From Pseudomonadota bacterium (lineage in GTDB: Bacteria; SZUA-182; DTGQ01), in assembly GCA_030625085.1 (NCBI GenBank), contig DAOURK010000009.1, positions 1,237 to 65,236 of the forward strand: a stretch of 64,000 bases of DNA, in the 5' to 3' direction. Shown one piece after another: positions 26,233 to 63,781 of the stretch. The notes beneath the pieces were generated by a model, which saw only the letters and a program-made list of their open reading frames with translations, ran no database searches and was not told where the DNA came from. Made by a program: the position numbers and the translations under genes. The stretch's first letter is position 1, and each line of letters begins with the position of its first letter.

Positions 26233-27192
26233 TCATCTTGATAGAATAATCTTATTTAAATCTTGCCTGGATGGGGCACCAGGCTGATGATCAGGATAAC
26301 CTATCGCAACCAAACTGATGGGTATGAGAACAGGATTCAGTGCGAAATGTTTATAAAAAAATTCGTACTTTGACTTTTCCATAAAAATCTCCCCTAAACC
26401 ATTCCACCCCTTGAATCCAACCCAGCAAGCACCAAAGCCCCTCGAATGCAGCAAAAGTAACATATTTTGAATAAAAGCCGCTCCATCCAAATAGGCAAAG
26501 TGTTTCTCATTAGATCCATAAAGACTGGCATTAATAAAGATGATAGCCAAAAGCGGGGCATTTTTATAAAAATCGTTTGGAAAAAAAGTGGTTAAAAATT
26601 CTTTATTTGTTTTATCATCAACCAGTAATATCTCCAAAAATTGACGATTACAAGATGTTGGCGCCCACTTTGAAATCTCAATGATATTATAAATATCATT
26701 AATAGAAATCTTTTTATCTTTCCATCTTCGAATGCTTCGCCTCTTCAGCATTACATCGATCAGATTTTGCTGATTACCTGATAAATGAACCTGGGCCGAT
26801 TCAGGAATCTCCATACCATTGCTGTTATCATTGGGAATGCCTTCCTTTCCCATGATATACATCTTATATGCCCATAAATATGTTGCACCCAATTGAAGTT
26901 TTCTTCTTTTCGCTCTTTTTAAAATAAATCTAATTTCGTTAAGCAGAGCATGAGGAATCTCTTTTTTCTGGGTTAATTTCAAATCGATACTGTGACCTAA
27001 TTGCTGCATTTTTCCCATTAAAGCTTTATCATTTGAAAGAGGCTTTTTATTATAATAATGTGAGAAATAAATTGTGCTTAAAAATTGATTAGACTTAATG
27101 ACTTTTTTAATGAATTCCCTCAACTTATTAAATCTCCTCATCAACTTATTAAATCTCCTCAAATACCTTATCATGCATGATCTAAGGCACAC
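26233..27192 (-). CDS. Nitroreductase family protein with N-terminal extension
   Basis: KRRSIRRW, WAPTSCNRQ, AAFIQNMLLLLHSRGFGACW, AIGYP. Confidence 0.85.
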   Translation of the reverse strand: MCLRSCMIRYLRRFNKLMRRFNKLREFIKKVIKSNQFLSTIYFSHYYNKKPLSNDKALMGKMQQLGHSIDLKLTQKKEIPHALLNEIRFILKRAKRRKLQLGATYLWAYKMYIMGKEGIPNDNSNGMEIPESAQVHLSGNQQNLIDVMLKRRSIRRWKDKKISINDIYNIIEISKWAPTSCNRQFLEILLVDDKTNKEFLTTFFPNDFYKNAPLLAIIFINASLYGSNEKHFAYLDGAAFIQNMLLLLHSRGFGACWVGFKGWNGLGEIFMEKSKYEFFYKHFALNPVLIPISLVAIGYPDHQPGAPSRQDLNKIILSR

Positions 27193-28096: not shown

Positions 28097-28128
28097 TTTA
28101 GGATTCCTTAATTGTGACCATTTATATA

Positions 28129-28341
28129 TTACCTCAATCTTTTTTTTAATTCCTCTACATCGTTTATGTCTAATAGTTCGGCGCCTATTTGGTTCAGCTT
28201 ACTAAAATTTTTAATTGATTTTATGTGTTTTTTCAGATTAGGAGAAAGGGCACCAAATTTTTTTTTGATTTGATTTAGGATTAAAAGCTGCATATTTTCC
28301 ATACCCTTTTCCATGCCCTTTTTTTCATATACTGTAATCAT
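28129..28341 (-). CDS. Stand-alone C-terminal (DUF4351-like / RpnS-like) domain of an Rpn-family nuclease, copy 1
   Basis: MITVYEKKGMEKG...LILNQIKKKFGALSP...ELLD. Own SD GAGGT. Matches the tail of the 37191-37793 frame. Confidence 0.7.
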   Translation of the reverse strand: MITVYEKKGMEKGMENMQLLILNQIKKKFGALSPNLKKHIKSIKNFSKLNQIGAELLDINDVEELKKRLR

Positions 28342-28353
28342 ATCTTTTACCTC

Positions 28354-28480
28354 GGGAAAAAAAGGGCACAGGGCACAAGGCGTAAGGGGAAAAAGGAGGG
28401 CTTAGGGCTCAAGGCGCAGGGCATAGGGCAAAAAGAAGGGCTTAGGGCTCAAGGCTTGGGGTGCAGGGGAACGGGCTTGG
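28354..28480 (+). repeat. G-rich heptamer tract T1 (NNAGGGC)
   Basis: ACAGGGC ACAAGGC GTAAGGG...TTAGGGC TCAAGGC GCAGGGC ATAGGGC AAAAAGA AGGGC TTAGGGC TCAAGGC. Confidence 0.9.
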
Positions 28481-28815
28481 ATGAGTCGGGTTAACATGCC
28501 GGAAATGCGTTTACATTCTTTTTCAATGTGATCAAAGTTTTGTTTGGATAGGTAACCTATTTCGAAAGCGATAATGGATTGTGTCAAAACTTCCGCTGTG
28601 GATCCTTTGGCAGTGTAAAAGAACTTGACTGCCTGTTTGTCAGTGTTAAGTTCGTCGCCTTCTGCAATATTACTAGAGATAGAGACAGATGCTCGCCGAA
28701 TTTGGTCTTTAAGGCCATCGTCATTCGCGAAGGCGCCTTGATTAGTTAATTTGTAAATTAAGACGGCGAGGTTTTTTGAATGCTGCCAAACGTTTAGTTC
28801 ACGAAATTTTCCCAT
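28402..28815 (-). CDS. Four helix bundle protein (23S rRNA-IVP / Avd-fold family)
   Basis: FRELNVWQ...LKDQIRRASVSISSNIAEG...AKGSTAEVLTQ. The reading frame runs on into tract T1. Confidence 0.9.
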   Translation of the reverse strand: MGKFRELNVWQHSKNLAVLIYKLTNQGAFANDDGLKDQIRRASVSISSNIAEGDELNTDKQAVKFFYTAKGSTAEVLTQSIIAFEIGYLSKQNFDHIEKECKRISGMLTRLIQARSPAPQALSPKPFFLPYALRLEP

Positions 28816-28826
28816 CGCCTGATTTC

Positions 28827-29204
28827 TTATAAATATTTAATTATTTCATCTATGACATTCGCTATTTCAGGCATATGAGTGCAAATTATTGTTCCATCTC
28901 TCGTATGTTTATGTGACTTACACCTTAATGCCGGTTTATGCAAAGCGTTATCATATCTGAAGATGAGTTTTCCATCTCTATCCAGGTATTGATAAGAATA
29001 ACTCACTTTATCTATTGTATATTTGGCATCTATATATTCTTGGATATGAAAAACCGAATTGTCTACGAGGATAATTTTGGCTTTTATAACGGCTTGTTTG
29101 CGTGCCCGCATTTCTTCTTTAAATTCAACAGCCTCCGTATATCCATAATCTCTAAGCCTTTCTAAGGCTCGTTGAAATGTTTCAAGGTAATTACGAAGTG
29201 ACAT
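28827..29204 (-). CDS. DUF6516/TumE-like putative toxin, copy 1
   Basis: YSYQY...LIFRYDNALH...HKHT motif. Confidence 0.7.
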   Translation of the reverse strand: MSLRNYLETFQRALERLRDYGYTEAVEFKEEMRARKQAVIKAKIILVDNSVFHIQEYIDAKYTIDKVSYSYQYLDRDGKLIFRYDNALHKPALRCKSHKHTRDGTIICTHMPEIANVIDEIIKYL

Positions 29205-29511
29205 GCGCGATACTTCTTAATACAGTTAAGTCTTCTTTTAATTTAATAAATAAATAATACTCTCCCGCCCATTCAACATATTCAATATCTTTTCCCTTTA
29301 AATCTTCAGCAGTCCAATTTTCTATGAACTCATCAGATGAGATATTGTATTTTTTTTCAAACTTTTTAAGCCGCTCTTTGGCAAGCTTAAGACTATATTT
29401 AATACGCAGGGTTTCTGTCTCAATAACCTCCTTGATAAATTTAACTGCCTTATCGGGCTTATTTGTCTCCAAAACTATTTTGGCCATTGTTTCCTCACTC
29501 TTAATTTCCAA
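29191..29511 (-). CDS. Putative antitoxin partner (TumA-like), copy 1
   Basis: LKKFEKKYNISSDEF...EYVEWAGE. Overlaps the downstream toxin gene. Confidence 0.65.
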   Translation of the reverse strand: MEIKSEETMAKIVLETNKPDKAVKFIKEVIETETLRIKYSLKLAKERLKKFEKKYNISSDEFIENWTAEDLKGKDIEYVEWAGEYYLFIKLKEDLTVLRSIAHVTS

Positions 29512-29551
29512 ATACTATAGGTGACTAGTTAACCTTTTTCCTTATTTCCAT

Positions 29552-29779
29552 TTATATTGCATAATATTTTCTCAATCTTTTTTTTAATTCCTCTACATCG
29601 TTTATGTCTAATAATTCGGCGCCTATTTGGTTCAGCTTACTGAAATTTTTTATAGATTTTATACGTTTTTTTAGATCGGGAGAAAGGGTACCAAATTTTT
29701 TTTTGATTTGATTTAGGATTAAAAGCTGCATATTTTCCATGCCCTTTTCCATGCCTTTTTTCTCATATACAGTAATCAT
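29552..29779 (-). CDS. Stand-alone RpnS-like / DUF4351-like domain, copy 2
   Basis: Near-identical to 28129-28341, with the same GAGGTAAAAGATATG start. Confidence 0.7.
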   Translation of the reverse strand: MITVYEKKGMEKGMENMQLLILNQIKKKFGTLSPDLKKRIKSIKNFSKLNQIGAELLDINDVEELKKRLRKYYAI

Positions 29780-29800
29780 ATCTTTTACCTCTAAAAAAAT

Positions 29801-29888
29801 AAGGGTTTAGGGAATAAAAAAGGGCTTAGGGCTTAGGGAATGAAAAAGGGCGTAGGGCTTAGGGCATAGGGCTTAAGGAACGTAGGGC
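29801..29888 (+). repeat. G-rich heptamer tract T2
   Basis: TTAGGGA..AGGGC TTAGGGC TTAGGGA..AGGGC GTAGGGC TTAGGGC ATAGGGC..GTAGGGC. Confidence 0.9.
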
Positions 29889-30045
29889 CGGTATCAAGCG
29901 CTAATTGTAATATTGTACCACCATTTGGACCATAAAGTTTTGTTGGAATTAAAATTAATCCTTTTTCTGCGTTAAAGGAGTGCTCACAATACTATAGCCA
30001 TTTTTTCAGGTTGTGGCCCAATATACAAAATAGCAGAATGTAAAT
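29888..30045 (-). pseudogene. Partial duplicate of the DUF5678-like 3' end and the retropepsin 5' end, truncated at the catalytic DTG
   Basis: Homologous to about 33672-33830. Reads ...ILQLALDTG and then enters tract T2. Confidence 0.8.
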
Positions 30046-30062
30046 CCTCTATATATTATCTT

Positions 30063-30422
30063 TTATATTATCTTTAATTTTTCCGAAACTATAACAAAAG
30101 CCCTTTCTACAAATTCTTCTATGGTAACCGCTTCTTCGGCAATTTTAGATTTGGCATGTTCATCCGGGCTTTCAAAAGGATGAAAATGCCATTGGCCAAA
30201 AATATAATCTTGGCCAAAAATTCTCCTATCATTTAAGATAAGAGCGTAACTTTTTTTGGGTTTTTTTATGTTTACATATATTTGAACAAATAATTCCTTT
30301 AAAAAGTGAAGCCTCGCTTTTATGATAGATTTTGTTTTCTCAATAATTTCCGATTCTATAACGATATCAAACTGGGAAATTTCTTCTAAATTTCGAAATA
30401 TCTCCTCAATGCTTTCTTTCAT
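30063..30422 (-). CDS. TumE/DUF6516-like putative toxin
   Basis: SYALI...IFGQD...WHFHPF His-rich motif; coupled to an upstream small gene. Confidence 0.55.
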   Translation of the reverse strand: MKESIEEIFRNLEEISQFDIVIESEIIEKTKSIIKARLHFLKELFVQIYVNIKKPKKSYALILNDRRIFGQDYIFGQWHFHPFESPDEHAKSKIAEEAVTIEEFVERAFVIVSEKLKII

Positions 30423-30724
30423 TCCATTTCCTTAATTTCTTCCTCTATATCCTCTAAAACAGTTACAGACATATCCCAGTCAAAGTAATCTCTTTCGATT
30501 TCGTAATTCATTTCTCTGTCTTTATATACTTTTTCAAAATTTTCAAATTTCATATTATATTTTTTTTCAAAATTCTTTACCATAAATATATATTTATTTT
30601 TTTTTCTTATTAGTTCTCTGTTTATCAATTCTTTAATTGCATCAACTATATCTCCTTTTTGGGTAATATTAACAAGCTCTTTTTGTACTTTCTCTGATAA
30701 AACAACATTGTTTGATATTGACAT
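30419..30724 (-). CDS. Putative antitoxin (FEKKY...DYFDW type), copy 1
   Basis: KNFEKKYNMKFENF...ERDYFDWDM. 4-bp overlap with the toxin gene. Confidence 0.6.
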   Translation of the reverse strand: MSISNNVVLSEKVQKELVNITQKGDIVDAIKELINRELIRKKNKYIFMVKNFEKKYNMKFENFEKVYKDREMNYEIERDYFDWDMSVTVLEDIEEEIKEME

Positions 30725-31135
30725 TTAAAATCCCTTCCTCAAAATACTCCTTGCTCTTAAAAGGTGCCTTTATAGTTCAGTACCTATTCGACGCAGCTTA
30801 TTAAAATTTTTTACAGCTTATAGGCGCTCTTCGATCTCAGGGGGGGTGGGCCAAAAATAAACACCTTTTTCATTATTTTGTTCCCTGACAATAGCTGTAT
30901 TGATCATGCTTTTCAGAAGCATTGCTTAATTTCCCTTCTGTTGCTCGTTCACCCATTGTATAAAGAAGCTTATCTGCTGATGATAGGTTTTTTGGTTAAA
31001 TAACACTGGTTCCATAGGATCAATTTGCCCTTTTTTGTAAATACCTTAGATTGTTGTATACATTGCAAATCTCCTCGCTTCTTTATAAATAATATCGGAG
31101 TTTTATTCGCAAAGCAATAGGTATATTCATCTGTT
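30725..31135 (-). repeat. About 400-bp segment duplicated at about 35918-36328; includes a degenerate Rpn C-terminal remnant
   Basis: Near-identical by eye to the second copy. Minus strand reads EIEERL*AVKNFNKLRRIGTEL, similar to IKSIKNFSKLNQIGAEL. Confidence 0.65.
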
Positions 31136-31140
31136 CCCCA

Positions 31141-31163
31141 GGTCCCAGGCCCTTGGCCCCCAG
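31141..31163 (-). repeat. Short heptamer tract T3 in the opposite orientation
   Basis: Minus strand CTGGGG GCCAAGG GCCTGGG ACC, directly after the truncated HEPN frame. Confidence 0.55.
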
Positions 31164-31361
31164 TTAGGTTGTTTGAATTATAATATCACTCAGTCTGGCA
31201 AACCTACTGGTAAAGGCTTCAAATCTATCAAGTTCATCAAGAGTATATTGTTCTTTAATGGCTATCTTTGTGCACGCAGCATAAGAGTAATTCATAATCT
31301 CTGTTGCATTTTCCAACAAAGATAATTCCTCTTTTAATAAACTAAGCAGATCCTGAATCAC
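31164..31361 (-). pseudogene. Truncated HEPN-like nucleotidyltransferase substrate-binding protein
   Basis: DELDRFEAFTSRFARLSDIIIQ, then a stop at 65 aa (about half the expected length); paired with the MNT gene. Confidence 0.65.
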
Positions 31362-31639
31362 AATAAAATGCCCTTTTTATAGGCAATTTTTACAAAAGGA
31401 TTGGTTGTATCCTTGGCAAGAATAAGATGTATCTTTTGTTCACCTAACCTTTTATAAAATCTTTGCATAATCTTTATTTTGTCTTCATAACCTAATTTTT
31501 GGGAAATTATCAACAGGTCTATATCTCCGCCTTTTTGCCTGTCATCAACACGTGAACCAAAAAGGTAAGTTTTTGCATAATTATCTAAATCGTGAATACA
31601 ATCTTTAATTGTTCTAACTTCATTCTCTTTTAAACGCAT
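31358..31639 (-). CDS. Minimal nucleotidyltransferase (MNT)
   Basis: YLFGSRVDDRQKGGDIDLL. Confidence 0.88.
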   Translation of the reverse strand: MRLKENEVRTIKDCIHDLDNYAKTYLFGSRVDDRQKGGDIDLLIISQKLGYEDKIKIMQRFYKRLGEQKIHLILAKDTTNPFVKIAYKKGILL

Positions 31640-31663
31640 AATTTCAACGTATCATATTTTCAT

Positions 31664-31849
31664 TTAGGCGACAAGGGGAAAAAGATGACAGCGAGGTCTG
31701 GCGGTTTTTTGTTGCGACCAGCCCTTTTCTTCCACTAAAAGCTTTATTCTACCGGCCAGCACTAACACTGTGAGCCTTTTGCAGTGGGTGGTATTGAGCT
31801 TGGCTGCCAGCGCCAAGGCCTCGTCGTGGCTGATGTCCTTTACCTGCAC
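31664..31849 (-). pseudogene. XRE/HTH antitoxin-like fragment
   Basis: RIKLLVEEKGWSQQKTA (start of an HTH) followed by unrelated sequence. Confidence 0.45.
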
Positions 31850-32058
31850 TTCGATTTCCTGATCCCCACGTTTTTTGGCACGAAATGATATGAACGTGCT
31901 TCTTTAAATGTCTCCAGTAAAGGTCCGCTTTTTGAAAAAGGGTCTTTTATTATGGCTGGTAAATGATTAAAAACAATTTCTTTTTGTATTGAATACGGTA
32001 ATCTTTTTAAATCTCTTTTCGCAGACAGCGAGAGTTCAAGGTTATATGGTTTAACCAT
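31840..32058 (-). pseudogene. RelE/ParE toxin, 3'-truncated
   Basis: YNLELSLSAKRDLKRLP...DPF...RSYHF, then diverges. Confidence 0.65.
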
Positions 32059-32272
32059 AATCTCTCTTTAATTCCTCTAAAGTGATAAATTGCTCTCCAC
32101 GTTTCTTGGCTTCAATAGTTTCTTTGGTTCTTTTATTAACATATTCTAAAAATGAGCTGTCTTCCTTGATCTTTAAAAATTCAATAAAATGTAAAACTTC
32201 CTTCTTCCCTTTCTCTGGTAAACTTTTGATATTTTTTAAAATTAGCTCATTAAGTTCAAATGTTCCCGCCAT
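32051..32272 (-). CDS. DUF2281-like antitoxin
   Basis: IKSLPEKGKKEVLHFIEFLK...FITLEELKRDYG; overlaps the RelE-like gene. Confidence 0.6.
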   Translation of the reverse strand: MAGTFELNELILKNIKSLPEKGKKEVLHFIEFLKIKEDSSFLEYVNKRTKETIEAKKRGEQFITLEELKRDYG

Positions 32273-32358
32273 AACTATTCTCCATTTAATTAGTTATTTT
32301 ACTTTATCAATCAGAGAAAAGATTGTCAATGGGCCAGGGGGTATGTCAAACTACTTTG

Positions 32359-32510
32359 ACTTATTAAATCTCCTCGTTTTTGGTTTAATCACGGGTTTTT
32401 ATTTTAGCCGCAGACACACGCAGACTTGCGCAGACTATTTATTTTTAATAATTATTATTGTGGGCTTCAGGTAAATGTTGTAAATATTCGTTTGATTGCA
32501 GCCCTAATTT
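32359..32510. repeat. Internally deleted copy of 34463-34770, containing CGCAGAC x3 (10-bp period)
   Basis: CGCAGAC at 32409, 32419 and 32429. Shares tttttggtt..atcac.ggtttttatt and cttcaggtaaat..attcgtttgatt with the 34.6 kb copy. Confidence 0.75.
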
Positions 32511-32519
32511 CAAATAAAA

Positions 32520-32600
32520 AGGGCTTAGGGCTTACGGCTTAGGGGAATATAGAAGGTTTTAGGGCTTAGGGCTTAGGGCTTAGGGCATAGGGAAAAAAAG
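32520..32600 (+). repeat. G-rich heptamer tract T4 with four perfect TTAGGGC units
   Basis: TTAGGGC x4 at 32559-32586, then ATAGGG; fits the G3N1-7 x4 quadruplex pattern. Confidence 0.92.
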
Positions 32601-32606
32601 GTTTAT

Positions 32607-33002
32607 TTAAATCCAATTTTCAATTTTAAGTCCTTTTATCCGTTTAAAATGCCTTTGATTATTTGTAACAAGCGTAAAATCATTTACCAAAGCACAAGCG
32701 GCAATAAACAGATCAGCATCATCAATAATTTCCCCTCTCTTTATCAACATCGCTTTTAATTTACCAAAGGTTTCGCATATTGCCTGGTTTGATTCAATAA
32801 TCCCCAATTTGCTTTCCAATAACCTAACATTGGATAAATTTTCCTTGACTTTCTGTGACTTATGGGCGCCATAATAAAGTTCACTTAAAGTCAGAAACGA
32901 AGTATATATATTATCAAGGCCGATATCTAAGGCTTTCTTTTCGATATCTGTATTTCCCTTTATCCAATAAACACAGATATTAGTATCCAAAAGGTAAGTC
33001 AT
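32607..33002 (-). CDS. vapC: VapC PIN-domain toxin
   Basis: YLLDTNICVY, TLSELYYG, DDADLFIAA, LVTNNQRHF. Confidence 0.92.
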   Translation of the reverse strand: MTYLLDTNICVYWIKGNTDIEKKALDIGLDNIYTSFLTLSELYYGAHKSQKVKENLSNVRLLESKLGIIESNQAICETFGKLKAMLIKRGEIIDDADLFIAACALVNDFTLVTNNQRHFKRIKGLKIENWI

Positions 33003-33253
33003 AATTCAACTTTACGTCCGCCAAAGCCTGTTCTGTGAGAATATATGTCTTCTATTATCTCTTCTGCACGCCTTTCATCTTCCCAGATTCCACAAAGGCC
33101 ACTGCTTTTTTCATGTCTATTTTTTTTTGCCTTCACTGTGAATATACCTTCTTGGAGGGAACGAAGCATTTTTATTACTTGGGGTATAACTTCGCTCGGC
33201 ATTTTACGTATTTCTTCAAGAACTTTTTCCTCATATTTAGTCCTGGTTTGCAT
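32999..33253 (-). CDS. VapB-like antitoxin (DUF2281-like)
   Basis: 4-bp overlap with vapC; LCGIWEDERRAEEII. Confidence 0.65.
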   Translation of the reverse strand: MQTRTKYEEKVLEEIRKMPSEVIPQVIKMLRSLQEGIFTVKAKKNRHEKSSGLCGIWEDERRAEEIIEDIYSHRTGFGGRKVEL

Positions 33254-33346
33254 AAATTTTCCTTCAATATTTTATCTTTTTTTTAATTAGTTTCAATTGA
33301 TTTTATTTTATCAGCATTGGAAAAACTTGTCAATTTAAGCTAAGAC

Positions 33347-33378
33347 AGGGGCATAAGGCTCAGGGCGTAGGGCATAGA
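33347..33378 (+). repeat. G-rich heptamer tract T5
   Basis: CAGGGGC ATAAGGC TCAGGGC GTAGGGC ATAG. Confidence 0.8.
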
Positions 33379-33392
33379 AAATTTCAACTCAA

Positions 33393-33774
33393 TTATTCTA
33401 TATTTACAAATCCATCTCGAAGGTCAACTACTATTTTATGTCCTCGAAAAAAATCTAAGCCAAGGACTCCATCTACTGTAACACTAAGTAAGGTATGACA
33501 AAGTACAGAAAAATTCCAACGTTTCAACCCCATGGCCTCGATTTCTTCTATTGCGATTTGCGGTACAAATTCTATTCCACTCCCCGTCGTCATTTTGATT
33601 CGTTCTGATAACGATAGCCGGATCATAACCCAAAAGCACCAAGATATCCCAGTTCACAATACATCTAGTTGCGCCGGTATCCAATGCTAGTTGTAATATT
33701 GTATCACCATTTGGTCCCCAAAATTTTGTTGGAATTAAAATTAATCCTTTTTCTGGGTTAAAGGAGAGACTCAC
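33393..33774 (-). pseudogene. Retropepsin-like aspartyl protease, frameshifted near 33615
   Basis: LALDTGAT in one frame; MTTGSG...DGVLGLDFF in another. Confidence 0.8.
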
Positions 33775-34013
33775 AATACTACAGCTATCTCTTCAGGTTG
33801 TATTCCTGTATACAAAATAGCAGTATGTTTAGGACATAATTTCCTTGCCTTGCGGTAAACTTCGTCTCTATCTTTACTATGCCAAAGTACCTTACCCTTT
33901 ATCACATTCAGGGTTTCATCAGTTTCCGGATCTTCCAAAAGAACCCATTCGGATTTAAACCGATTCTTGATTTCTGCTAAAATTGCAATTTTACTCATTA
34001 TCACACCCCACAA
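33771..34013 (-). CDS. Small DUF5678-like protein, partner of the retropepsin gene
   Basis: SEWVLLED...GKVLWHSKDRDEVY...ILYTG; overlaps the protease start. Confidence 0.55.
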   Translation of the reverse strand: MWGVIMSKIAILAEIKNRFKSEWVLLEDPETDETLNVIKGKVLWHSKDRDEVYRKARKLCPKHTAILYTGIQPEEIAVVL

Positions 34014-34134
34014 ATAGTGGTTTTATGCTAATTCAACTGTTTCGGTTTTTTTCTTTTTTGTCTTTATTTTTATCCCTGCTGTGTATAATAAAATTTTAGT
34101 CTTTACAGCGAGCATAGTCAAGAAAATGAATAAA

Positions 34135-34212
34135 GAAGGCGGAGGGAAAAAGAAGGGCTTAGGGGACAAAAAGGCGTAAGGCGAAGGGGGAAAAAGAAGG
34201 ACGCAGGGCTTA
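34135..34212 (+). repeat. G-rich heptamer tract T6
   Basis: GGAGGGA AAAAGA AGGGC TTAGGGG..GTAAGGC GAAGGGG..GCAGGGC. Confidence 0.8.
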
Positions 34213-34294
34213 TAAGATCTTTTTGTGGATATTCAGGTAGGGTTTCGATTATGTCTAAGGCCTCTTGAAATGTTACGTTTCGTTGACTAGACAT
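34212..34294 (-). pseudogene. 5' fragment of a small antitoxin-like gene, truncated at tract T6
   Basis: MSSQRNVTFQEALDIIETLPEYPQKDLI, then enters the repeat. Confidence 0.5.
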
Positions 34295-34420
34295 CTAAAT
34301 ATATCCTTATATAAAATTTATTGAACAATATTATATTTTATGTAAGGCTTTTTTTGCCTGATTTAATTCCCTCATTTTTTCCTTTTTTATACCTTTACGA
34401 AATTTTGGCCGACGTGTGAC

Positions 34421-34618
34421 CTAAATTTTTTTTGCCCAGGCCCTCGCGTCGAAAATCTGCCGACTTATTAAATTTCCTCCTTTTGATTTTAGGAATGTTA
34501 CACTGTTCCTCATAGCCGGCTTCGTTAATTTTCGTTTTTGATCGATCCTGGCGCGGGGGTAGATTGTTTCGTCCAGGACGATGTTGGTGCTGGGGAGTGT
34601 GGTTTTTGGTTTGATCAC
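34421..34618 (-). pseudogene. ParB-N-like gene fragment
   Basis: IVLDETIYPRARIDQKR, then degenerate; preceded by CGCAGAC x2 (34636, 34646). Confidence 0.45.
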
Positions 34619-34914
34619 TGGTTTTTATTTTTGGCCGCAGACTCACGCAGACAAAAGCGAACTATTTATTTTTACTAATTATTATTGTGCGCTTCAGGTA
34701 AATTTATATACATTCGTTTGATTTTTGGCTTTCAGGTGAAGTTATAAACATTCGTTTGATTTGTGGCCAACAAGCGCAATATTCACCATTATGGCTTAAC
34801 ACCCTTCCGGCATTTTCGGCAAATGGTTTTACATAGCGTCAGCAACTGCCTTAAACCATAGCGTAAAACTAATCGCCAGGCCCTTCTCCTTTAAGCCCTA
34901 CTTTGGTTGGGCTT

Positions 34915-35917: not shown

Positions 35918-36324
35918 TTAAAATTCCTTCCTCAAAAGACTCCTTGCTCTTAAAAGGTGCCTTTATAGTTCAGTGCCTATTCGACGCAGCTTATTAATAT
36001 TTTTTATAGCTTTTAGGCGCTCTTCTATCTCAGGGGGGTGAGACAAAAATAAACACCTTTTTCATTATTTTGTTCCCTGACAATAGCGGTATTGATCATG
36101 CTTTTCAGAAACATTGCTTAATTTCCCTTCTATTGCTCGTTCACCCATTGTATAAAGAAGCTTATCTGCTGATGATAGGTTTTTTGGTTAAATAACACTG
36201 ATTCCATAGGATCAATTTGCCCTTTTTTGTAAATACCTTAGATTGTTGTATACATCGCAAATCTCCTCGCTTCTTTATAAATAATATCGGAGTTTTATTC
36301 GCAAAGCAATAGGTATATTCATCT

Positions 36325-36436
36325 GTTCTTTAAGGCCGTAGTCATTAGCAAATATGCCTTTCCCTGTTAATTTATAAATAAATACGGCGAGGTCCTTTGC
36401 ATGCTGCCATACTTTAAGCTCCTGAAATTTTCCCAT
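36325..36436 (-). pseudogene. 5' fragment of a second four helix bundle gene
   Basis: MGKFQELKVWQHAKDLAVFIYKLTGKGIFANDYGLKEQ, then joins the duplicated 400-bp segment at GAACAGAT. Confidence 0.8.
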
Positions 36437-37190: not shown

Positions 37191-37793
37191 TCATAACCTT
37201 TTTTTTAATTCCTCTACGTCGTTTATGTCTAATAGTTCGGCGCCTATTTGGTTCAACTTGCTGAAATTTTTAATTGATTTTATGCGCTTTTTCAGATCGG
37301 GAGAAAGGGCACCAAATTTTTTTTTGATTTGATTTAAGATTAAAAGCTGCATATTTTCCATGCCCTTTTCCATGCCCTTTTCCATGCCCTTTTCAATGCC
37401 CTTTTCAATGCCCTTTTTCTCATATAGAGTAATCATATCTTTTACCTCCCTGTAACTTCCATCATGATCTAGGGTTTTGAAAAACTGTTCTTCGTCTTTT
37501 TTTGTTAAGACCATCGAGTCATTGATAAAATTTATCAGGATGCTTTGCCTTGCTTCATCAATTCGGGAAGTCAAGATCAATCTTAAAGCCTCCATCTTGA
37601 CTTTTGTTCTCTCTTTTTTATTGAAACCCATTTTTACCATCAAGGCATAGGCTAATGGGTTATTAACTGTTAAATATTTTCTATAATCAAGTTCTTTGAG
37701 CTTTATTTTTTTGTAACGAAAATTTAAATAAATTTCATCATATTCTATCTTGTATTCACGATCTATCTCTTTTTTCCATAAATGATCATCAGC
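37191..37793 (-). pseudogene. 5'-truncated Rpn-family (PD-(D/E)XK recombination-promoting nuclease / putative transposase) gene with intact internal RpnS-like start at 37436
   Basis: Open frame from directly after the ATPase stop: ADDHLWKKEID...KIKLKELDYRKYLTVNNPLAYALMVKM...YREVKDMITLYEKKG(IEKG)2(MEKG)2. Embedded SD AGGGAGGT at 37444-37451. Confidence 0.7.
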
Positions 37794-52446: not shown

Positions 52447-53355
52447 TTAAGTAACAATATCAACTACAACAGGATCAGCAGCTACAGGTGTGGTAGCTCC
52501 GAATAATGTATTAAGATAGGGATTCAACATTCCCATCATACCAAAACCGCCCATTCCGCCCATTCCCATAAAGGGATAATAAGAACTGGTAAGGTCTAGA
52601 TTGGAATTACCAAATAACCCTCCATACATGTAAGGATTCATTCGGCCAAAACCGCCCATTCCTCCCATAAAAGGATAATAAGAACTGGTATCCAACTCCG
52701 AACTACCAAATAATCCTCCATACTGATAAGGATTCATTCGGCCAAAACCACCCATTCCCAAGAATGGACTATAAGTACTCGTCGTATCAGTCTCTGTATT
52801 ACCTAATAATCCACTATACTGATAAGGGTTCATTCGGCCAAAACCACCCATTCCGCCAAAACCACCCATTCCCAGGAATGGACTATAAGTACTCGTCGTA
52901 TCAGTCTCTGTACTACCTAATAATCCACTATACTGATAAGGATTCATTCGGCCAAAACCGCCCATTCCGCCAAAACCGCCCATCCCCATGAATGGATTAT
53001 AAATACTCGTTGTATCAGTTCCTGCACTGCCGAATAATCCGCCATACAGATAAGAGTTCATTCCGCCAAAACCGCCCATTCCGCCAAAACCGCCCATCCC
53101 CATGAATGGATTATAAATACTCGTCGTATCAGTCCCTGAACTGCCGAATAATCCTCCGTATGAGTAAGGATTCATCATTCCCATCATACCACCCAAACCA
53201 TAACCACCCAAACCAAACATACCTCCCATGAAAGGAGAAAATAGGGAACTTAAGTCAGTTGTTGTTGTTTGGGCTTGAGCAGTCCCGAAAGTAAGACAAA
53301 AACATATGGCCATACAAAATACAAAGGTAGCAAGAATACTAATTAACTTTTTCAT
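52447..53355 (-). CDS. Secreted Gly/Met/Phe/Tyr-rich tandem-repeat protein, function unknown
   Basis: Signal peptide ending AQA; about six 32-38 aa units NPYxYGGLFG..DTTS.Y.PFMGMGGFG(GMGGFG)RM; strong SD GGAGG. Confidence 0.8.
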   Translation of the reverse strand: MKKLISILATFVFCMAICFCLTFGTAQAQTTTTDLSSLFSPFMGGMFGLGGYGLGGMMGMMNPYSYGGLFGSSGTDTTSIYNPFMGMGGFGGMGGFGGMNSYLYGGLFGSAGTDTTSIYNPFMGMGGFGGMGGFGRMNPYQYSGLLGSTETDTTSTYSPFLGMGGFGGMGGFGRMNPYQYSGLLGNTETDTTSTYSPFLGMGGFGRMNPYQYGGLFGSSELDTSSYYPFMGGMGGFGRMNPYMYGGLFGNSNLDLTSSYYPFMGMGGMGGFGMMGMLNPYLNTLFGATTPVAADPVVVDIVT

Positions 53356-61558: not shown

Positions 61559-63781
61559 ATGAAATCCCCAAACGATGCTCATCTGCCAGATCAAACACAG
61601 TCTATCCTCAAAAATATATTTGGATACGATGAATTCAGACCCCTTCAAAGAGAAATCATCCATAATGTTCTCAACAAAAATGACACGATGGTCATCATGC
61701 CGACGGGGGGTGGAAAATCACTCTGTTATCAAATTCCCGCCCTCATTTTTCAAGGTCTGACAGTGGTCGTCTCTCCCTTAATTTCGCTGATGAAGGATCA
61801 AGTCGAACAACTGAGGGAGATTGGCGTCCAGGCGGCATTTTTAAATAGTACATTGTCATATGAACAATACCGGCACACGGTGGCGCAAATAATGAAGAAT
61901 GAAGTCAAGTTACTTTACCTTGCCCCTGAAGCGCTGTTCCGGGAAAAAACCTTGGCCCTCCTTTCATCAGTTAAGGTTGATTGCTTAACCATCGATGAGG
62001 CTCACTGTATTTCAGAATGGGGGCATGATTTTCGCCCTGAATACCGAAAACTTGTTGAAATCAGAAATCAATTTCCCTCGGCAGTATGTATTGCGCTCAC
62101 AGCAACAGCAACCCCGCGGGTACAAAAAGATATCCAAGAAAACCTCGGTTTTGATCAGTCCAATGAATTTATTGCCAGTTTTAACAGGAAAAACTTGTTT
62201 ATCCGGATTGTGCCAAAAAACGATCCTTCTGCACAACTAATACAATTTTTGAAAAAATTCCCTAATCAATCCGGTATCATTTACTGCTTTTCCCGCCGGC
62301 AGGTAAATGATTTGTATGAGGTATTACTAGAGAGAGGTTTTTCAGTCAAGCCCTACCATGCCGGTTTATCTGAAAAGGAGCGCACCCAAAATCAGGAATT
62401 ATTCATTCGGGATGATGTGCAGATTATCGTAGCAACGATTGCTTTTGGCATGGGCATCAATAAGCCGAACGTGCGTTTTGTCATTCATTATGACCTTCCC
62501 AAAAATATCGAGACCTATTATCAGGAGATCGGAAGAGCGGGTCGAGACGGCTTAAGAGCCCATTGCCTGTTGTTATTCGGCTATGGGGACATACAAAAAA
62601 TTAAATATTTTATCACCCAAAAGAGCGAACAGGAACAAAGAGTGGCCAATCTTCATCTGAGCGCTTTATTACGCTTTCTTGAAACCGATGCCTGCCGCCG
62701 CATTCCATTGCTCACCTATTTTGGTGAAGATTACTCAGTCCCCAAATGCGATTCATGTGATAACTGCCTGGAAGAAGAAAAGGAGCTTGTAGACATCACC
62801 ATTGCCGCCCAAAAGTTCCTTTCCTGTGTCAGTAGGACGGGTGAGATATTCGGCACCAACCATATCATTGATGTTTTGCGGGGCTCCCAATCCCAAAAGA
62901 CATTGAAATTTAATCATCAAAATTTATCAACCTATGGTATTGGGAAAGAGTATTCAAAAAGGCAGTGGTTTCATCTGTCCCGGCAATTCATCCGGAAGGG
63001 CTTGATGACGCAGGATATGGAATTTGGCAGTTTAAAACTTACTCCAAAAACCTATGAGGTGTTTAAGGGCACAGAAAGGGTATGGGGTAAAATCGACGAA
63101 GAAAGGGAAGTGAATTACAACCAAAGAAAAGAAAGTGAATGTGAATACGACCATGATTTATTTGAATTATTGAGAAGCAAACGCAAAGAATTGGCTGATA
63201 AAGGTAACGTTCCCCCTTATGTGATTTTCCCGGATAAAACCCTTATTGAGATGGCCGTTTTTTTCCCTCAATCCAAAAAGAATTTATTGAATATGCACGG
63301 AGTCGGATCAGCACGATTTGAAAAGTATGGCCATATTTTTTTGAATATCATTAAGCACTATTGCCTTGAACATCATATTCAAGAGCAATCAAAGCATACA
63401 GCCATCCATGGGACATCCATCTCAAAGCCAAAGCCAAGGTCGAGTCTGATCCTGAAACGAAAACATGTCATTGTGGGCGAGGCATACAATGAGGGCACAT
63501 CAGTGAGCGAAATTATGGCCAAGTTCGGCATTAAGCTGGATACTGTTTTAACTCATTTATCCAAATATCTGCAGGAAGGACATACTATCCGATCTGAGGG
63601 CATCCTTAAGGTTTCAACATTAACCTCTGATCAGCAAACTGCTGTGATGCAAACCATCGACAAGCTCGGCACAGGATATTTAAGGCCCATCTTCGAGGCG
63701 ATGAAGGAAACAATCAGTTATACTGAGATCAAGATTCTTCATCTGTATTACATAATTACGCACACCAAAAAAACGCTATAA
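61559..63781 (+). CDS. recQ: ATP-dependent DNA helicase RecQ
   Basis: MPTGGGKSLCYQ, IDEAHCISEWGHDFRPEY, ATIAFGMGINKP, YYQEIGRAGRDG, Zn site CRR..CDSCDNC, RQC and HRDC domains, C-terminal HTH. Confidence 0.97.
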   Translation: MKSPNDAHLPDQTQSILKNIFGYDEFRPLQREIIHNVLNKNDTMVIMPTGGGKSLCYQIPALIFQGLTVVVSPLISLMKDQVEQLREIGVQAAFLNSTLSYEQYRHTVAQIMKNEVKLLYLAPEALFREKTLALLSSVKVDCLTIDEAHCISEWGHDFRPEYRKLVEIRNQFPSAVCIALTATATPRVQKDIQENLGFDQSNEFIASFNRKNLFIRIVPKNDPSAQLIQFLKKFPNQSGIIYCFSRRQVNDLYEVLLERGFSVKPYHAGLSEKERTQNQELFIRDDVQIIVATIAFGMGINKPNVRFVIHYDLPKNIETYYQEIGRAGRDGLRAHCLLLFGYGDIQKIKYFITQKSEQEQRVANLHLSALLRFLETDACRRIPLLTYFGEDYSVPKCDSCDNCLEEEKELVDITIAAQKFLSCVSRTGEIFGTNHIIDVLRGSQSQKTLKFNHQNLSTYGIGKEYSKRQWFHLSRQFIRKGLMTQDMEFGSLKLTPKTYEVFKGTERVWGKIDEEREVNYNQRKESECEYDHDLFELLRSKRKELADKGNVPPYVIFPDKTLIEMAVFFPQSKKNLLNMHGVGSARFEKYGHIFLNIIKHYCLEHHIQEQSKHTAIHGTSISKPKPRSSLILKRKHVIVGEAYNEGTSVSEIMAKFGIKLDTVLTHLSKYLQEGHTIRSEGILKVSTLTSDQQTAVMQTIDKLGTGYLRPIFEAMKETISYTEIKILHLYYIITHTKKTL

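Follow-up and report, generated by a model that had tools for sequence, protein, structure and literature searches.

We analyzed a 64,000-nucleotide stretch of a Pseudomonadota genome (assembly GCA_030625085.1, contig DAOURK010000009.1, positions 1,237 to 65,236; referred to as the window below), in which tracts of degenerate heptamers of the NNAGGGC type lie among small toxin-antitoxin (TA) and defence genes. The window has a G + C content of 36.8%, and 65 of its 72 called genes are located on the minus strand. The TA and defence genes form an island from 27.2 to 37.8 kb that is encoded entirely on the minus strand and interrupts an exopolysaccharide/exosortase (XrtD) locus. It contains a PhdYefM fragment, tumA-tumE twice, a gene for a four-helix-bundle (4HB) protein and a fragment of a second one, vapBC, MNT and a truncated partner, DUF2281 and a broken RelE-like gene, DUF5678 and a frameshifted retropepsin-like gene, parE and its antitoxin, and five rpn/DUF4351 gene pieces. 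Five main heptamer tracts (T1 to T5) and two short inverted ones (inv1 and inv2) are found in this island. The original prediction, made from the nucleotide sequence alone, had interpreted them as telomere-like synthesis products or as joining signals of a gene-capture system. Our analysis suggests that they are probably the repeat arms of selfish elements that resemble the intervening sequences (IVSs) of 23S rRNA genes and carry a 4HB gene of the family PF05635 (S23p/Avd-like). The features in question are the following.

28129..28341, minus strand: rpnS-like (DUF4351) antitoxin gene c1, stand-alone, with four-amino-acid repeats (KGME x2)
28354..28480, plus strand: tract T1, G-rich on the plus strand and C-rich on the gene (minus) strand; candidate 3' arm of the intact 4HB gene
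28402..28815, minus strand: 4HB gene (PF05635, 23S_rRNA_IVP / S23p / Avd-like; Pfam 113 bits, model positions 1-105 of 106)
29552..29779, minus strand: rpnS-like gene c2, a paralogue of c1 (self-alignment)
29790..29888, plus strand: tract T2, C-rich on the sense strand; left end homologous to T1
29887..30041, minus strand: retropepsin-like gene fragment, truncated at both ends, 86% identical to 33673-33828
31128..31136, minus strand: 9-nt 4HB remnant (GAACAGATG, codons ~36-38; from the alignment of 31080-31230 with 36272-36422)
31137..31163, minus strand: tract inv1, G-rich on the sense strand (5'-arm polarity), directly followed by the 9-nt 4HB remnant
32505..32600, plus strand: tract T3, putative orphan, starting 7 nt after the vapC stop codon
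33340..33380, plus strand: tract T4, short, putative orphan, between the end of the retropepsin-like open reading frame (ORF; 33393) and the vapBC promoter (33333-33305)
34130..34215, plus strand: tract T5, degenerate, putative orphan; right edge at codon 28 of a 58-aa ORF
34876..34905, minus strand: tract inv2, short, with a G-rich sense strand, separated from the parE stop codon by 10 nt
36320..36436, minus strand: second 4HB copy, codons 1-40 only (local hidden Markov model (HMM), E = 8e-18)
37191..37793, minus strand: rpn (recombination-promoting nuclease) gene c3, decayed and 5'-truncated, with a dodecamer array at 37354-37417 (KGIE/KGME x5)

Heptamer tracts of the island

The window was searched with Tandem Repeats Finder (TRF) and scanned on both strands for AGGGC at 7-nt spacing, with Markov shuffles as the control. 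On the plus strand, clusters with this spacing are present at 28363-28455, 29821-29879, 32520-32593, and 33348-33373 only, and the scan found none on the minus strand and none elsewhere in the 64 kb, with 0 to 0.2 clusters expected from the shuffles. Of the 69 AGGGC pentamers on the plus strand, 26 are located within 28363-34205. T5 is more degenerate and falls below the threshold of the scan; it has a 21-mer (GGGAAAAAGAAGGGCTTAGGG) in common with T1. The inverted tracts are both short, as had been predicted, inv1 is weak, and inv2 is similar to the reversed right end of T2. All tracts lie within the 2.9 kb of non-coding DNA of the TA/defence island, and the 7.4 kb of non-coding DNA beyond the island contain none, in agreement with the original prediction; the probability of this restriction is about 0.002 for five tracts, the copies not being independent. 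A Logan contig (L122, run SRR14339844) is 100% identical to the window across T3, so that T3, at least, is no assembly artefact.

On the sense strand of the genes, the five main tracts are C-rich (GCCCTAA, GCCTTGA, GCCCTAT, and others), with units that differ chiefly at two positions. The ratio of C to G is 2.9 to 4.2 over 86-127 nt in T1, T2, T3, and T5, against a background with more G than C on the same strand. Runs of T on the sense strand, described previously as A-rich spacers of the other strand, interrupt the main tracts and usually end them. In addition to the heptamer period, TRF reported higher-order periods of 40 nt for T1 and 26 nt for T2, which indicates that the tracts grow by duplication of whole modules and not of heptamers alone. 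The repeat search reported no inverted-repeat pairs at the tracts, which are direct heptamer repeats on one strand. The window contains only three canonical G-quadruplex (G4) motifs, all of them in tracts, namely T2 (29848-29871), T3 (32562-32592), and inv1; the G4 pattern had been claimed for T2, correctly, and for T4, which lacks it. Stop codons are present in all six frames of T2 and T3. As tandem repeats of 5-11 nt units in non-coding DNA that exceed chance, intergenic or located at gene ends, the tracts are heptanucleotide long simple sequence repeats (LSSRs). A literature search with the repeat sequence itself yielded nothing relevant.

The right edge of each tract lies 0-15 nt from the 3' end of a gene or at a truncation point, as originally noticed, whereas the left side adjoins either a promoter-like site of the next cassette (T4, T5) or a paralogous rpnS-type gene (T1, T2). 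T1, in which a 40-nt module of heptamers and a sense-strand T-run is repeated about 2.3 times, starts exactly where the ...LIQARS motif concludes the conserved part of the 4HB protein. The conserved part of the 4HB gene spans 28471-28815, and its final 22 codons are read-through encoded by T1. On the other side, T1 abuts c1 13 nt upstream of the ATG, with the ribosome-binding site GAGGT retained. T2 joins the retropepsin fragment directly after the DTG codons (GAT-ACC-GGC), where the tract reads GTAGGGC and the copy without the tract GTTGCGC (local similarity). The longer retropepsin-like gene (33393-33774), previously regarded as intact, is frameshifted near 33600; the repaired protein reaches the Asp_protease_2 threshold (25.6 bits). 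T3 contains TTAGGGC x4 and a single inverted unit (32503-32509), and both of its ends have sense-strand T-runs. The start of T4 is 14 nt away from the end of the retropepsin-like ORF, and T5 adjoins the promoter of the next cassette (34121-34093) with its left edge.

The module comprising the candidate 3' arm and rpnS is present twice, with 28126-28366 matching 29564-29804. In a self-alignment, the homology of both c1 and c2 to c3 ceases at the identical nucleotide, which precedes the rpnS start codon by 13 nt and leaves the ribosome-binding site in place, and c3 retains the sequence that the other two have lost beyond the tract edge. The 9-nt 4HB remnant beside inv1 is joined to the same downstream segment (36033-36319) as the second 4HB copy at 36320, where the paralogous junction is devoid of any tract. 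At least four rearrangement junctions of the island are tract-free (37793, 36320, ~35640, and 30041), and thus the association between tracts and junctions is strong but not exclusive.

Four-helix-bundle genes and heptamer arrays in other lineages

Without exception, the 119 closest homologues of the 4HB protein (70-79% identical) have ...MLTRLIQARS as their conserved end, beyond which 0-25 unconserved residues follow; the window protein shares this end and continues with its tract-encoded tail. Several of the foreign tails (KAQGKS, KKPKPYALRPMP) look like translated heptamers. 4HB loci were fetched from other gene contexts, that is, DegT aminotransferase/acetyltransferase (L258), lexA/imuB (L259-L263), and lexA/dnaE2 (L264-L266 as well as L267, which was picked for having no tail). 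In all of these loci, G-rich NNA(A/G)GGC heptamers on the sense strand reach up to the ribosome-binding site, and C-rich complements are found after the stop codon, in many cases beyond another G-rich stretch and a loop, and frequently terminated by a T-run. The same arm layout was observed for all of the five to six more divergent 4HB genes that a local family HMM detected among metagenome loci.

In minimum free energy folds, the two arms pair with each other across the ORF (44, 63, 31, and 97 pairs), and the energies of the arm duplexes are −75.5, −104.5, −66.4, and −192.5 kcal/mol, compared with −44 ± 5, −72 ± 7, −46 ± 5, and −98 ± 7 kcal/mol for shuffled sequences. A long stem whose loop contains the ORF is predicted for L259, L264, L154, L239, and L258 and for the plasmid copies L268, L269, L271, and L273. 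Window tracts and foreign arms have identical strings of 18-28 nt in common, whereas controls share 9.1 nt on average and 13 nt at most. One of 18 nt (CGCCTTGTGCCCTGTGCC) is common to T1 and the 3' arm of L259 and has the same orientation relative to the gene in both. The suggested link between the tracts and 4HB genes proved to be real, with T1 at the end of the 4HB gene and foreign 4HB genes bracketed by similar repeats.

To obtain an unbiased sample, the window 4HB protein was compared by tblastn with 72,556 plasmids, yielding 16 matches, all cyanobacterial, eight of which were fetched. Short tandem repeats hug the gene in seven of the eight, and a purine-rich 5' array with a 3' complement is visible in six of these seven. 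The units are lineage-specific (GGGAAAA/CCCTTTT, TTAGCTG/AAGCTAA, AAAGCTA x14, AAGGCAG/CTTCTGC, GGAGATA/ATCTCCT, and GGGTGTA). Plasmid 4HB genes lie within operons, between cas6 and cas4, cmr2(cas10) and cmr3, and parA and parB (among L271, L274, and L273). Two of these sites have empty counterparts. In Picosynechococcus PCC 7002, cmr2 and cmr3 are separated by 12 nt, whereas in PCC 7003 the spacer harbors the arms and the 4HB gene, the flanks being 92.8% identical. In Pseudanabaena ABRG5-3, 36 nt separate cas6 from cas4, and CCNP1313 carries the element in that spacer. In both filled alleles, the element spans the region from the stop codon to the ATG. Thus, arms and gene constitute one discrete indel unit that fills the stop-to-ATG spacer. 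The empty spacer of Pseudanabaena itself is an AATTACG repeat, perhaps a footprint or an orphan arm. The last cas10 codons of PCC 7003 differ from those of the empty-site allele, and the 5' arm opens with a duplicated cas10 end (AAGAATTTGAGGAGAT x2). A 4HB gene has also been described between gmk and nadD of Flavobacterium columnare (PMC5524665). No 4HB relatives were found in viral contigs.

A scan of genome contigs for AGGGCNN x4 yielded at least 120 loci; the source genome was not among the matches listed. These intergenic arrays are distributed over many phyla, and neither orientation with respect to the flanking genes is preferred (25 versus 25; 120 arrays listed). In other lineages, vapC homologues (60-73% identical) lack an NNAGGGC tract, and hence the tract is not part of the vapBC cassette. 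In the TA island of another lineage (L248-L251), the copy numbers of AAAGGCT (11.7 versus 14.7) and CACTAAT (5.4 versus 4.4) differ between samples, which is direct evidence of slippage in such arrays. Throughout L248-L257, copy numbers of CTGCCCACCG, AAAGGCT, and CACTAAT vary by sample, and a HicB-like cassette is present or absent, its site being bounded on both sides by a repeat (CACTGCCCACCGATTTATTGCCACAGGAATAACAGGGC.CGTTCCCCGAAC).

Arrays of other architectures were observed as well. In Microcoleus and Tychonema (L005, L009, L012, L037, L050, L056, L058, L066, L068, L075, L080, L090, L118, and L120), (CATAGGG)n arrays lie in a conserved frame, TATAGCCTTTC...[array]...CCTCAC...GAGAACCGCTATA, which looks like a dispersed element of the type of miniature inverted-repeat transposable elements (MITEs) with a variable heptamer core. 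Many loci of the genome scan (for example, L014, L049, L055, L067, L070, L084, L201, and L220) consist of a G-rich array, a short loop, and the C-rich complement; such ORF-less hairpins could represent terminators or non-autonomous forms related to the 4HB elements. The metagenome scan returned mostly short contigs with arrays mixing TTAGGGC with long TTTAGGG/TTCAGGG (many of L129-L229), probably eukaryotic (algal) telomeric or subtelomeric DNA that confounds searches for TTAGGGC.

Candidate elements and rival explanations

On balance, we consider it probable that the window tracts are arms of IVS-like 4HB elements. A complete element would begin with a 5' arm of purine-rich, degenerate heptamers on the sense strand (NNA(A/G)GGC in this subfamily), which would also supply the ribosome-binding site, continue with an ORF of ~117 codons, and end with a 3' arm, a pyrimidine-rich GCC(C/T)TNN array complementing the 5' arm and usually having a T-run at its end. 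At the RNA level, pairing of the two arms, for which many registers are available, could produce a long stem whose loop contains the ORF, similar to the ORF-bearing intervening sequences of 23S rRNA. Such a stem would let the element sit in a host transcript, from which it would probably be cut out by RNase III. Elements of this kind would fill the spacer from the stop codon of one gene to the start codon of the next.

In the window, T1 would be the 3' arm of the intact 4HB gene; the 5' arm would have been lost, because the tumE stop codon is located only 11 nt upstream of the ATG. The best pairing partners of C-rich tracts are the sense-strand G-rich tracts upstream of them, inv1 for T2 and inv2 for T5, with predicted energies of −40.9 and −44.1 kcal/mol against a background of about −19 ± 9 kcal/mol. 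As inv1 is the best upstream partner of T2 and is followed by the 4HB remnant, the stretch as far as T2 looks like a second element, a gutted one that would comprise inv1, the 9-nt remnant, other cassettes replacing the interior, and T2. The module of 3' arm and rpnS would have been duplicated in the island, and T3, T4, T5, and inv2 would be orphan arms. Recombination and microhomology-mediated deletion could start in the repeated, slippage-prone, and partly G4-capable arms, and deletions initiated there would leave arms at cassette junctions, against truncated genes.

Several observations weigh against this interpretation. None of the window elements is complete, and without its 5' arm no stem can form at the intact 4HB gene, which makes it a broken member. 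A local HMM detected no 4HB remnant next to T3, T4, or T5; their putative status as orphan arms is based on similarity to T1 and T2 and on polarity. The similarity of inv1 and inv2 to foreign arms is at background level. None of the 120 listed genome loci picked only for AGGGCNN arrays contained a 4HB gene according to the local HMM, indicating that heptamer arrays can exist independently. A related 4HB gene, in L245, is flanked on both sides by direct octamer arrays (TTAACCAT)n, not by inverted heptamers. Furthermore, several of the comparison loci were chosen for arrays or long protein tails, which is an ascertainment bias, and the three lexA-linked loci may represent one ancient insertion. 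Processing by RNase III, mobility, and the deletion mechanism are components of the model that we infer.

The main rival explanation, which we regard as unlikely, is that the tracts are ordinary heptanucleotide simple sequence repeats (SSRs) of the LSSR type, like the short tandemly repeated repetitive (STRR) sequences of cyanobacteria and the TAACTGA repeats of Beggiatoaceae, which would spread by slippage, independently of 4HB genes, and would lie at junctions because repeats and G4-prone sequences are fragile and recombinogenic. According to the statement of MacGregor (2015) that cites Mrazek (2007), heptamers are the commonest long SSR class in SSR-rich prokaryotes, and slippage has been proposed for them. 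The intergenic AGGGCNN arrays of many phyla with no 4HB gene nearby, the copy number differences between samples in the foreign TA island, the higher-order repeats, the location of the only three canonical G4 motifs in tracts, and T3 to T5 with no 4HB remnant would all fit this explanation. However, it does not account for the start of T1 exactly at the end of the 4HB coding region, for the complementary arrays upstream and downstream of 4HB genes in many unrelated genomes, for the arms and gene coming and going as one unit, or for the tract-free 7.4 kb of non-coding DNA outside the island. A different proposal, which we deem very improbable, is that the tracts are kept as transcription insulators, their C-rich, G-poor, unstructured RNA resembling rut sites and TTAGGGC placing stops in every frame. 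It would agree with the C/G ratios of T1, T2, T3, and T5, the stop codons in all six frames of T2 and T3, the strong promoter-like sites directly after T4 and T5, and the scarcity of intrinsic terminators (4 predicted versus 8.7 expected, and none at island gene ends). However, two tracts have the opposite polarity, the 120 listed arrays elsewhere show no orientation bias, and T1 is partly translated and lies between the 4HB gene and an rpnS gene without a promoter of its own, which argues against termination at T1. Moreover, insulation is silent on the origin of the tracts and would be compatible with their being 4HB arms.

The original interpretation itself, namely joining signals of a repeat-punctuated gene-capture system or filler synthesized at breaks on a template by a telomerase- or reverse transcriptase-like enzyme, now appears highly implausible, although its observational part, a family of related tracts at cassette boundaries and at several truncation points, stands. 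Tracts coincide with cassette boundaries and with about six edges of truncation or rearrangement at a frequency far above that expected by chance, the tract-bearing junction at 31136 can be read as derived relative to its tract-less paralogue at 36320, and variation is concentrated at two positions of the unit. However, the reverse transcriptase, primase, or recombinase expected alongside the tracts was not found: none of 46 window ORFs scanned (those of the island plus roughly half of the window's larger ORFs) encodes a reverse transcriptase, primase, integrase, transposase, or other recombinase, the recombination-related exceptions in the window being the decayed rpn nuclease remnants and a RecQ gene 24 kb away. 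The repeats are direct and not attC-like imperfect palindromes, the G-rich strands of T2 and T5 run towards the truncated gene, which is the wrong polarity for 3'-end addition, the four or more tract-free junctions carry no such filler, and T3 and T4 are each located between an undisturbed stop codon and an intact promoter. In other genomes, the same repeats are paired arms around a specific gene, and the 26-40 nt higher-order repeats point to slippage or duplication. Four candidate readings were rejected: integron attC sites (no palindromes, and no IntI in the ORFs scanned), a clustered regularly interspaced short palindromic repeats (CRISPR) array (no fixed-size spacers), telomerase-like healing (polarity, degeneracy, and no reverse transcriptase found), and adenine mutagenesis as in diversity-generating retroelements (DGRs). 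In the latter case, the variable NN is AA on the sense strand, but neither a reverse transcriptase nor a pair of template and variable repeats was detected, and the same NN positions vary between lineages.

If the tracts are arms of 4HB elements, a more general, tentative proposal can be made, whose validity as a whole we consider rather doubtful: bracketed PF05635 4HB genes could form a widespread, unrecognized class of operon-invading selfish elements, of which the S23p IVS of rRNA would be a special case. The arms of this class may be complementary short repeats, mostly of 7 nt and Shine-Dalgarno-like. Insertion would occur exactly in stop-to-start spacers (cas6/cas4, cmr2/cmr3, parA/parB, lexA/dnaE2, and TA islands), and host transcription would be tolerated through a register-free RNA stem. 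Decay would seed orphan heptamer arrays, a possible source of some of the unexplained STRR-type repeats of cyanobacteria and other phyla. Movement via an RNA intermediate, with a reverse transcriptase acting in trans, is conceivable by analogy, since the protein is a homologue of Avd. A limited literature search, which is weak evidence, yielded no account of stand-alone 4HB genes bracketed by complementary heptamer arrays or inserted in operon spacers.

Thousands of stand-alone genes bear the annotation "four helix bundle protein" (S23p), with neither their function nor their route of spreading accounted for, and the source of bacterial heptamer arrays, described since 1990, is likewise unexplained. 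If arms and gene are one element, the RNA stem, RNase III processing, and stop-to-ATG insertion constitute a testable model. The rRNA IVSs would then be linked to elements in protein-coding operons, including CRISPR-cas, where insertion may uncouple cas expression, and a source would be offered for some orphan heptamer arrays. For annotation, it would mean that repeat DNA is often translated into the C-terminal tails of 4HB proteins and their upstream neighbours. In the case of the window, which holds only broken copies, a more ordinary and checkable reading replaces telomere-like synthesis or a new gene-capture system.

Other features of the window and comparison with known systems

Stand-alone rpnS genes with variable four-amino-acid (dodecamer) repeats 8-20 residues after the initial Met encode antitoxins of Rpn nucleases (PMC10400941). 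The rpnS copies of the window fit this description, having KGME repeats from residue 8, and the DUF4351 pieces are not mere debris. The KGIE/KGME repeats are encoded by the dodecamer TTTTCCATGCCC, which is present in 5.3 copies in c3 (37354-37417) and 2.3 copies each in c1 (28295-28322) and c2 (29733-29760) and corresponds to the hypervariable repeat that has been described in RpnS antitoxins (PMC10400941). The start of c1 is bracketed by a perfect 13-nt inverted repeat at 28313-28325 (TGCCCTTTTTTTC) and 28356-28368 (GAAAAAAAGGGCA), with the ribosome-binding site and ATG in the loop, and 12-mers of T2 (GGGAATGAAAAA) are similar to the rpnS dodecamer (GGGCATGGAAAA) read as its reverse complement, a low-complexity match. 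Both could point to a fold-back origin or a regulatory hairpin in what is low-complexity sequence. A search for DUF4351 homologues found few relatives; the source lineage is rare, with an identity of 75-77% to the closest DNA.

A second repeated intergenic element is present at 32358-32497, 34462-34761, and 27120-27161. It comprises GTCTGCG-type heptamers (GCAGACACACGCAGACTTGCGCAGAC), a CTTCAGGTAAAT...CGTTTGATT module, which occurs as a tandem duplicate at 34685-34767, and a GACTTATTAAATCTCCTC motif; similar repeats (ACGCAAAG) are located downstream of vapC in L249-L253. In two other low-GC contigs of metagenome-assembled genomes (L243 and L245), rpn, vapBC, or 4HB genes likewise lie beside genes of sugar loci, in these cases Epimerase_2 genes. 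The HEPN identity assigned to 31164-31361 was not confirmed by a profile search. A 302-aa ORF at 52447-53355 (minus strand) consists of 96- and 114-nt tandem repeats (TRF scores 323-637) and has no Pfam or NCBIfam match. The full-length RecQ helicase gene mentioned above (61559-63781, 771 bits) is 24 kb away from the tracts; RecQ helicases unwind G4 DNA, and there is no sign of a link to the tracts here.

The closest known counterparts of the candidate elements are the ORF-bearing IVSs in 23S rRNA genes of Coxiella burnetii, Leptospira, and others, which share with them the PF05635 protein, the location of the ORF in the loop of a stem of complementary termini, and heptamers before the ORF. 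These IVSs are viewed as selfish and as tolerated in the host transcript because RNase III removes the stem (PMC4990558). The IVS of Coxiella burnetii is regarded as a selfish element; its 28-bp terminal stem is cut by RNase III, the S23p ORF lies in the loop, and tandem GACAGAT heptamers, whose number varies by strain, precede the ORF (PMC4990558). Heptamer repeats also adjoin the window 4HB ORF in the one assembly available. In contrast to the rRNA IVSs, the elements described here are located between protein-coding genes, in a TA island in the window and in cas, par, lexA-dnaE2, and sugar operons elsewhere, and their arms are heptamer arrays instead of a unique 28-bp inverted repeat. In addition, the window element has a 3' arm only, orphan arms are scattered around it, and RNase III cleavage is a prediction. 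An Rfam search of the window identified one tRNA only and no rRNA, and the gene resides in a TA island and not in an insertion at helix 25 or 45. Therefore, the element is designated IVS-like and not IVS.

The TAACTGA repeats of Beggiatoaceae, Cyanobacteria, and Bacteroidetes and the STRR sequences are intergenic, degenerate, mixed heptamers with strain-specific indels in 7-nt steps, and they have been suspected of roles in regulation or genome rearrangement (PMC4679880). Unlike the arms, they are dispersed, lie mostly upstream of start codons, and are not described as complementary pairs around one gene family; the units differ as well, being TTAGGGC-like here and TAACTGA, CCCCAGT, or others there. 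Integron cassette arrays, including TA-rich chromosomal ones, resemble the island in that small, co-oriented cassettes, many of them TA genes with their own promoters, are each followed by a repeat element. In contrast to integrons, no IntI was found among the 46 ORFs, R''/R' cores or a bulged palindrome (GTTRRRY core) are lacking, and window tracts are also located at truncation points inside genes.

The Avd proteins of DGRs have the same four-helix-bundle fold and belong to the same family (PMC10053308). Unlike avd, the window gene stands alone, and neither a reverse transcriptase nor a template/variable repeat pair was found. A further parallel is provided by MITEs of the Correia, enterobacterial repetitive intergenic consensus (ERIC), and repetitive extragenic palindromic (REP) types, whose inverted arms fold in the host transcript and which insert next to gene ends and are co-transcribed and processed. 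However, these have unique terminal inverted repeats and no ORF, whereas the arms described here are reiterated heptamers, and the full form of the element carries the 4HB gene.

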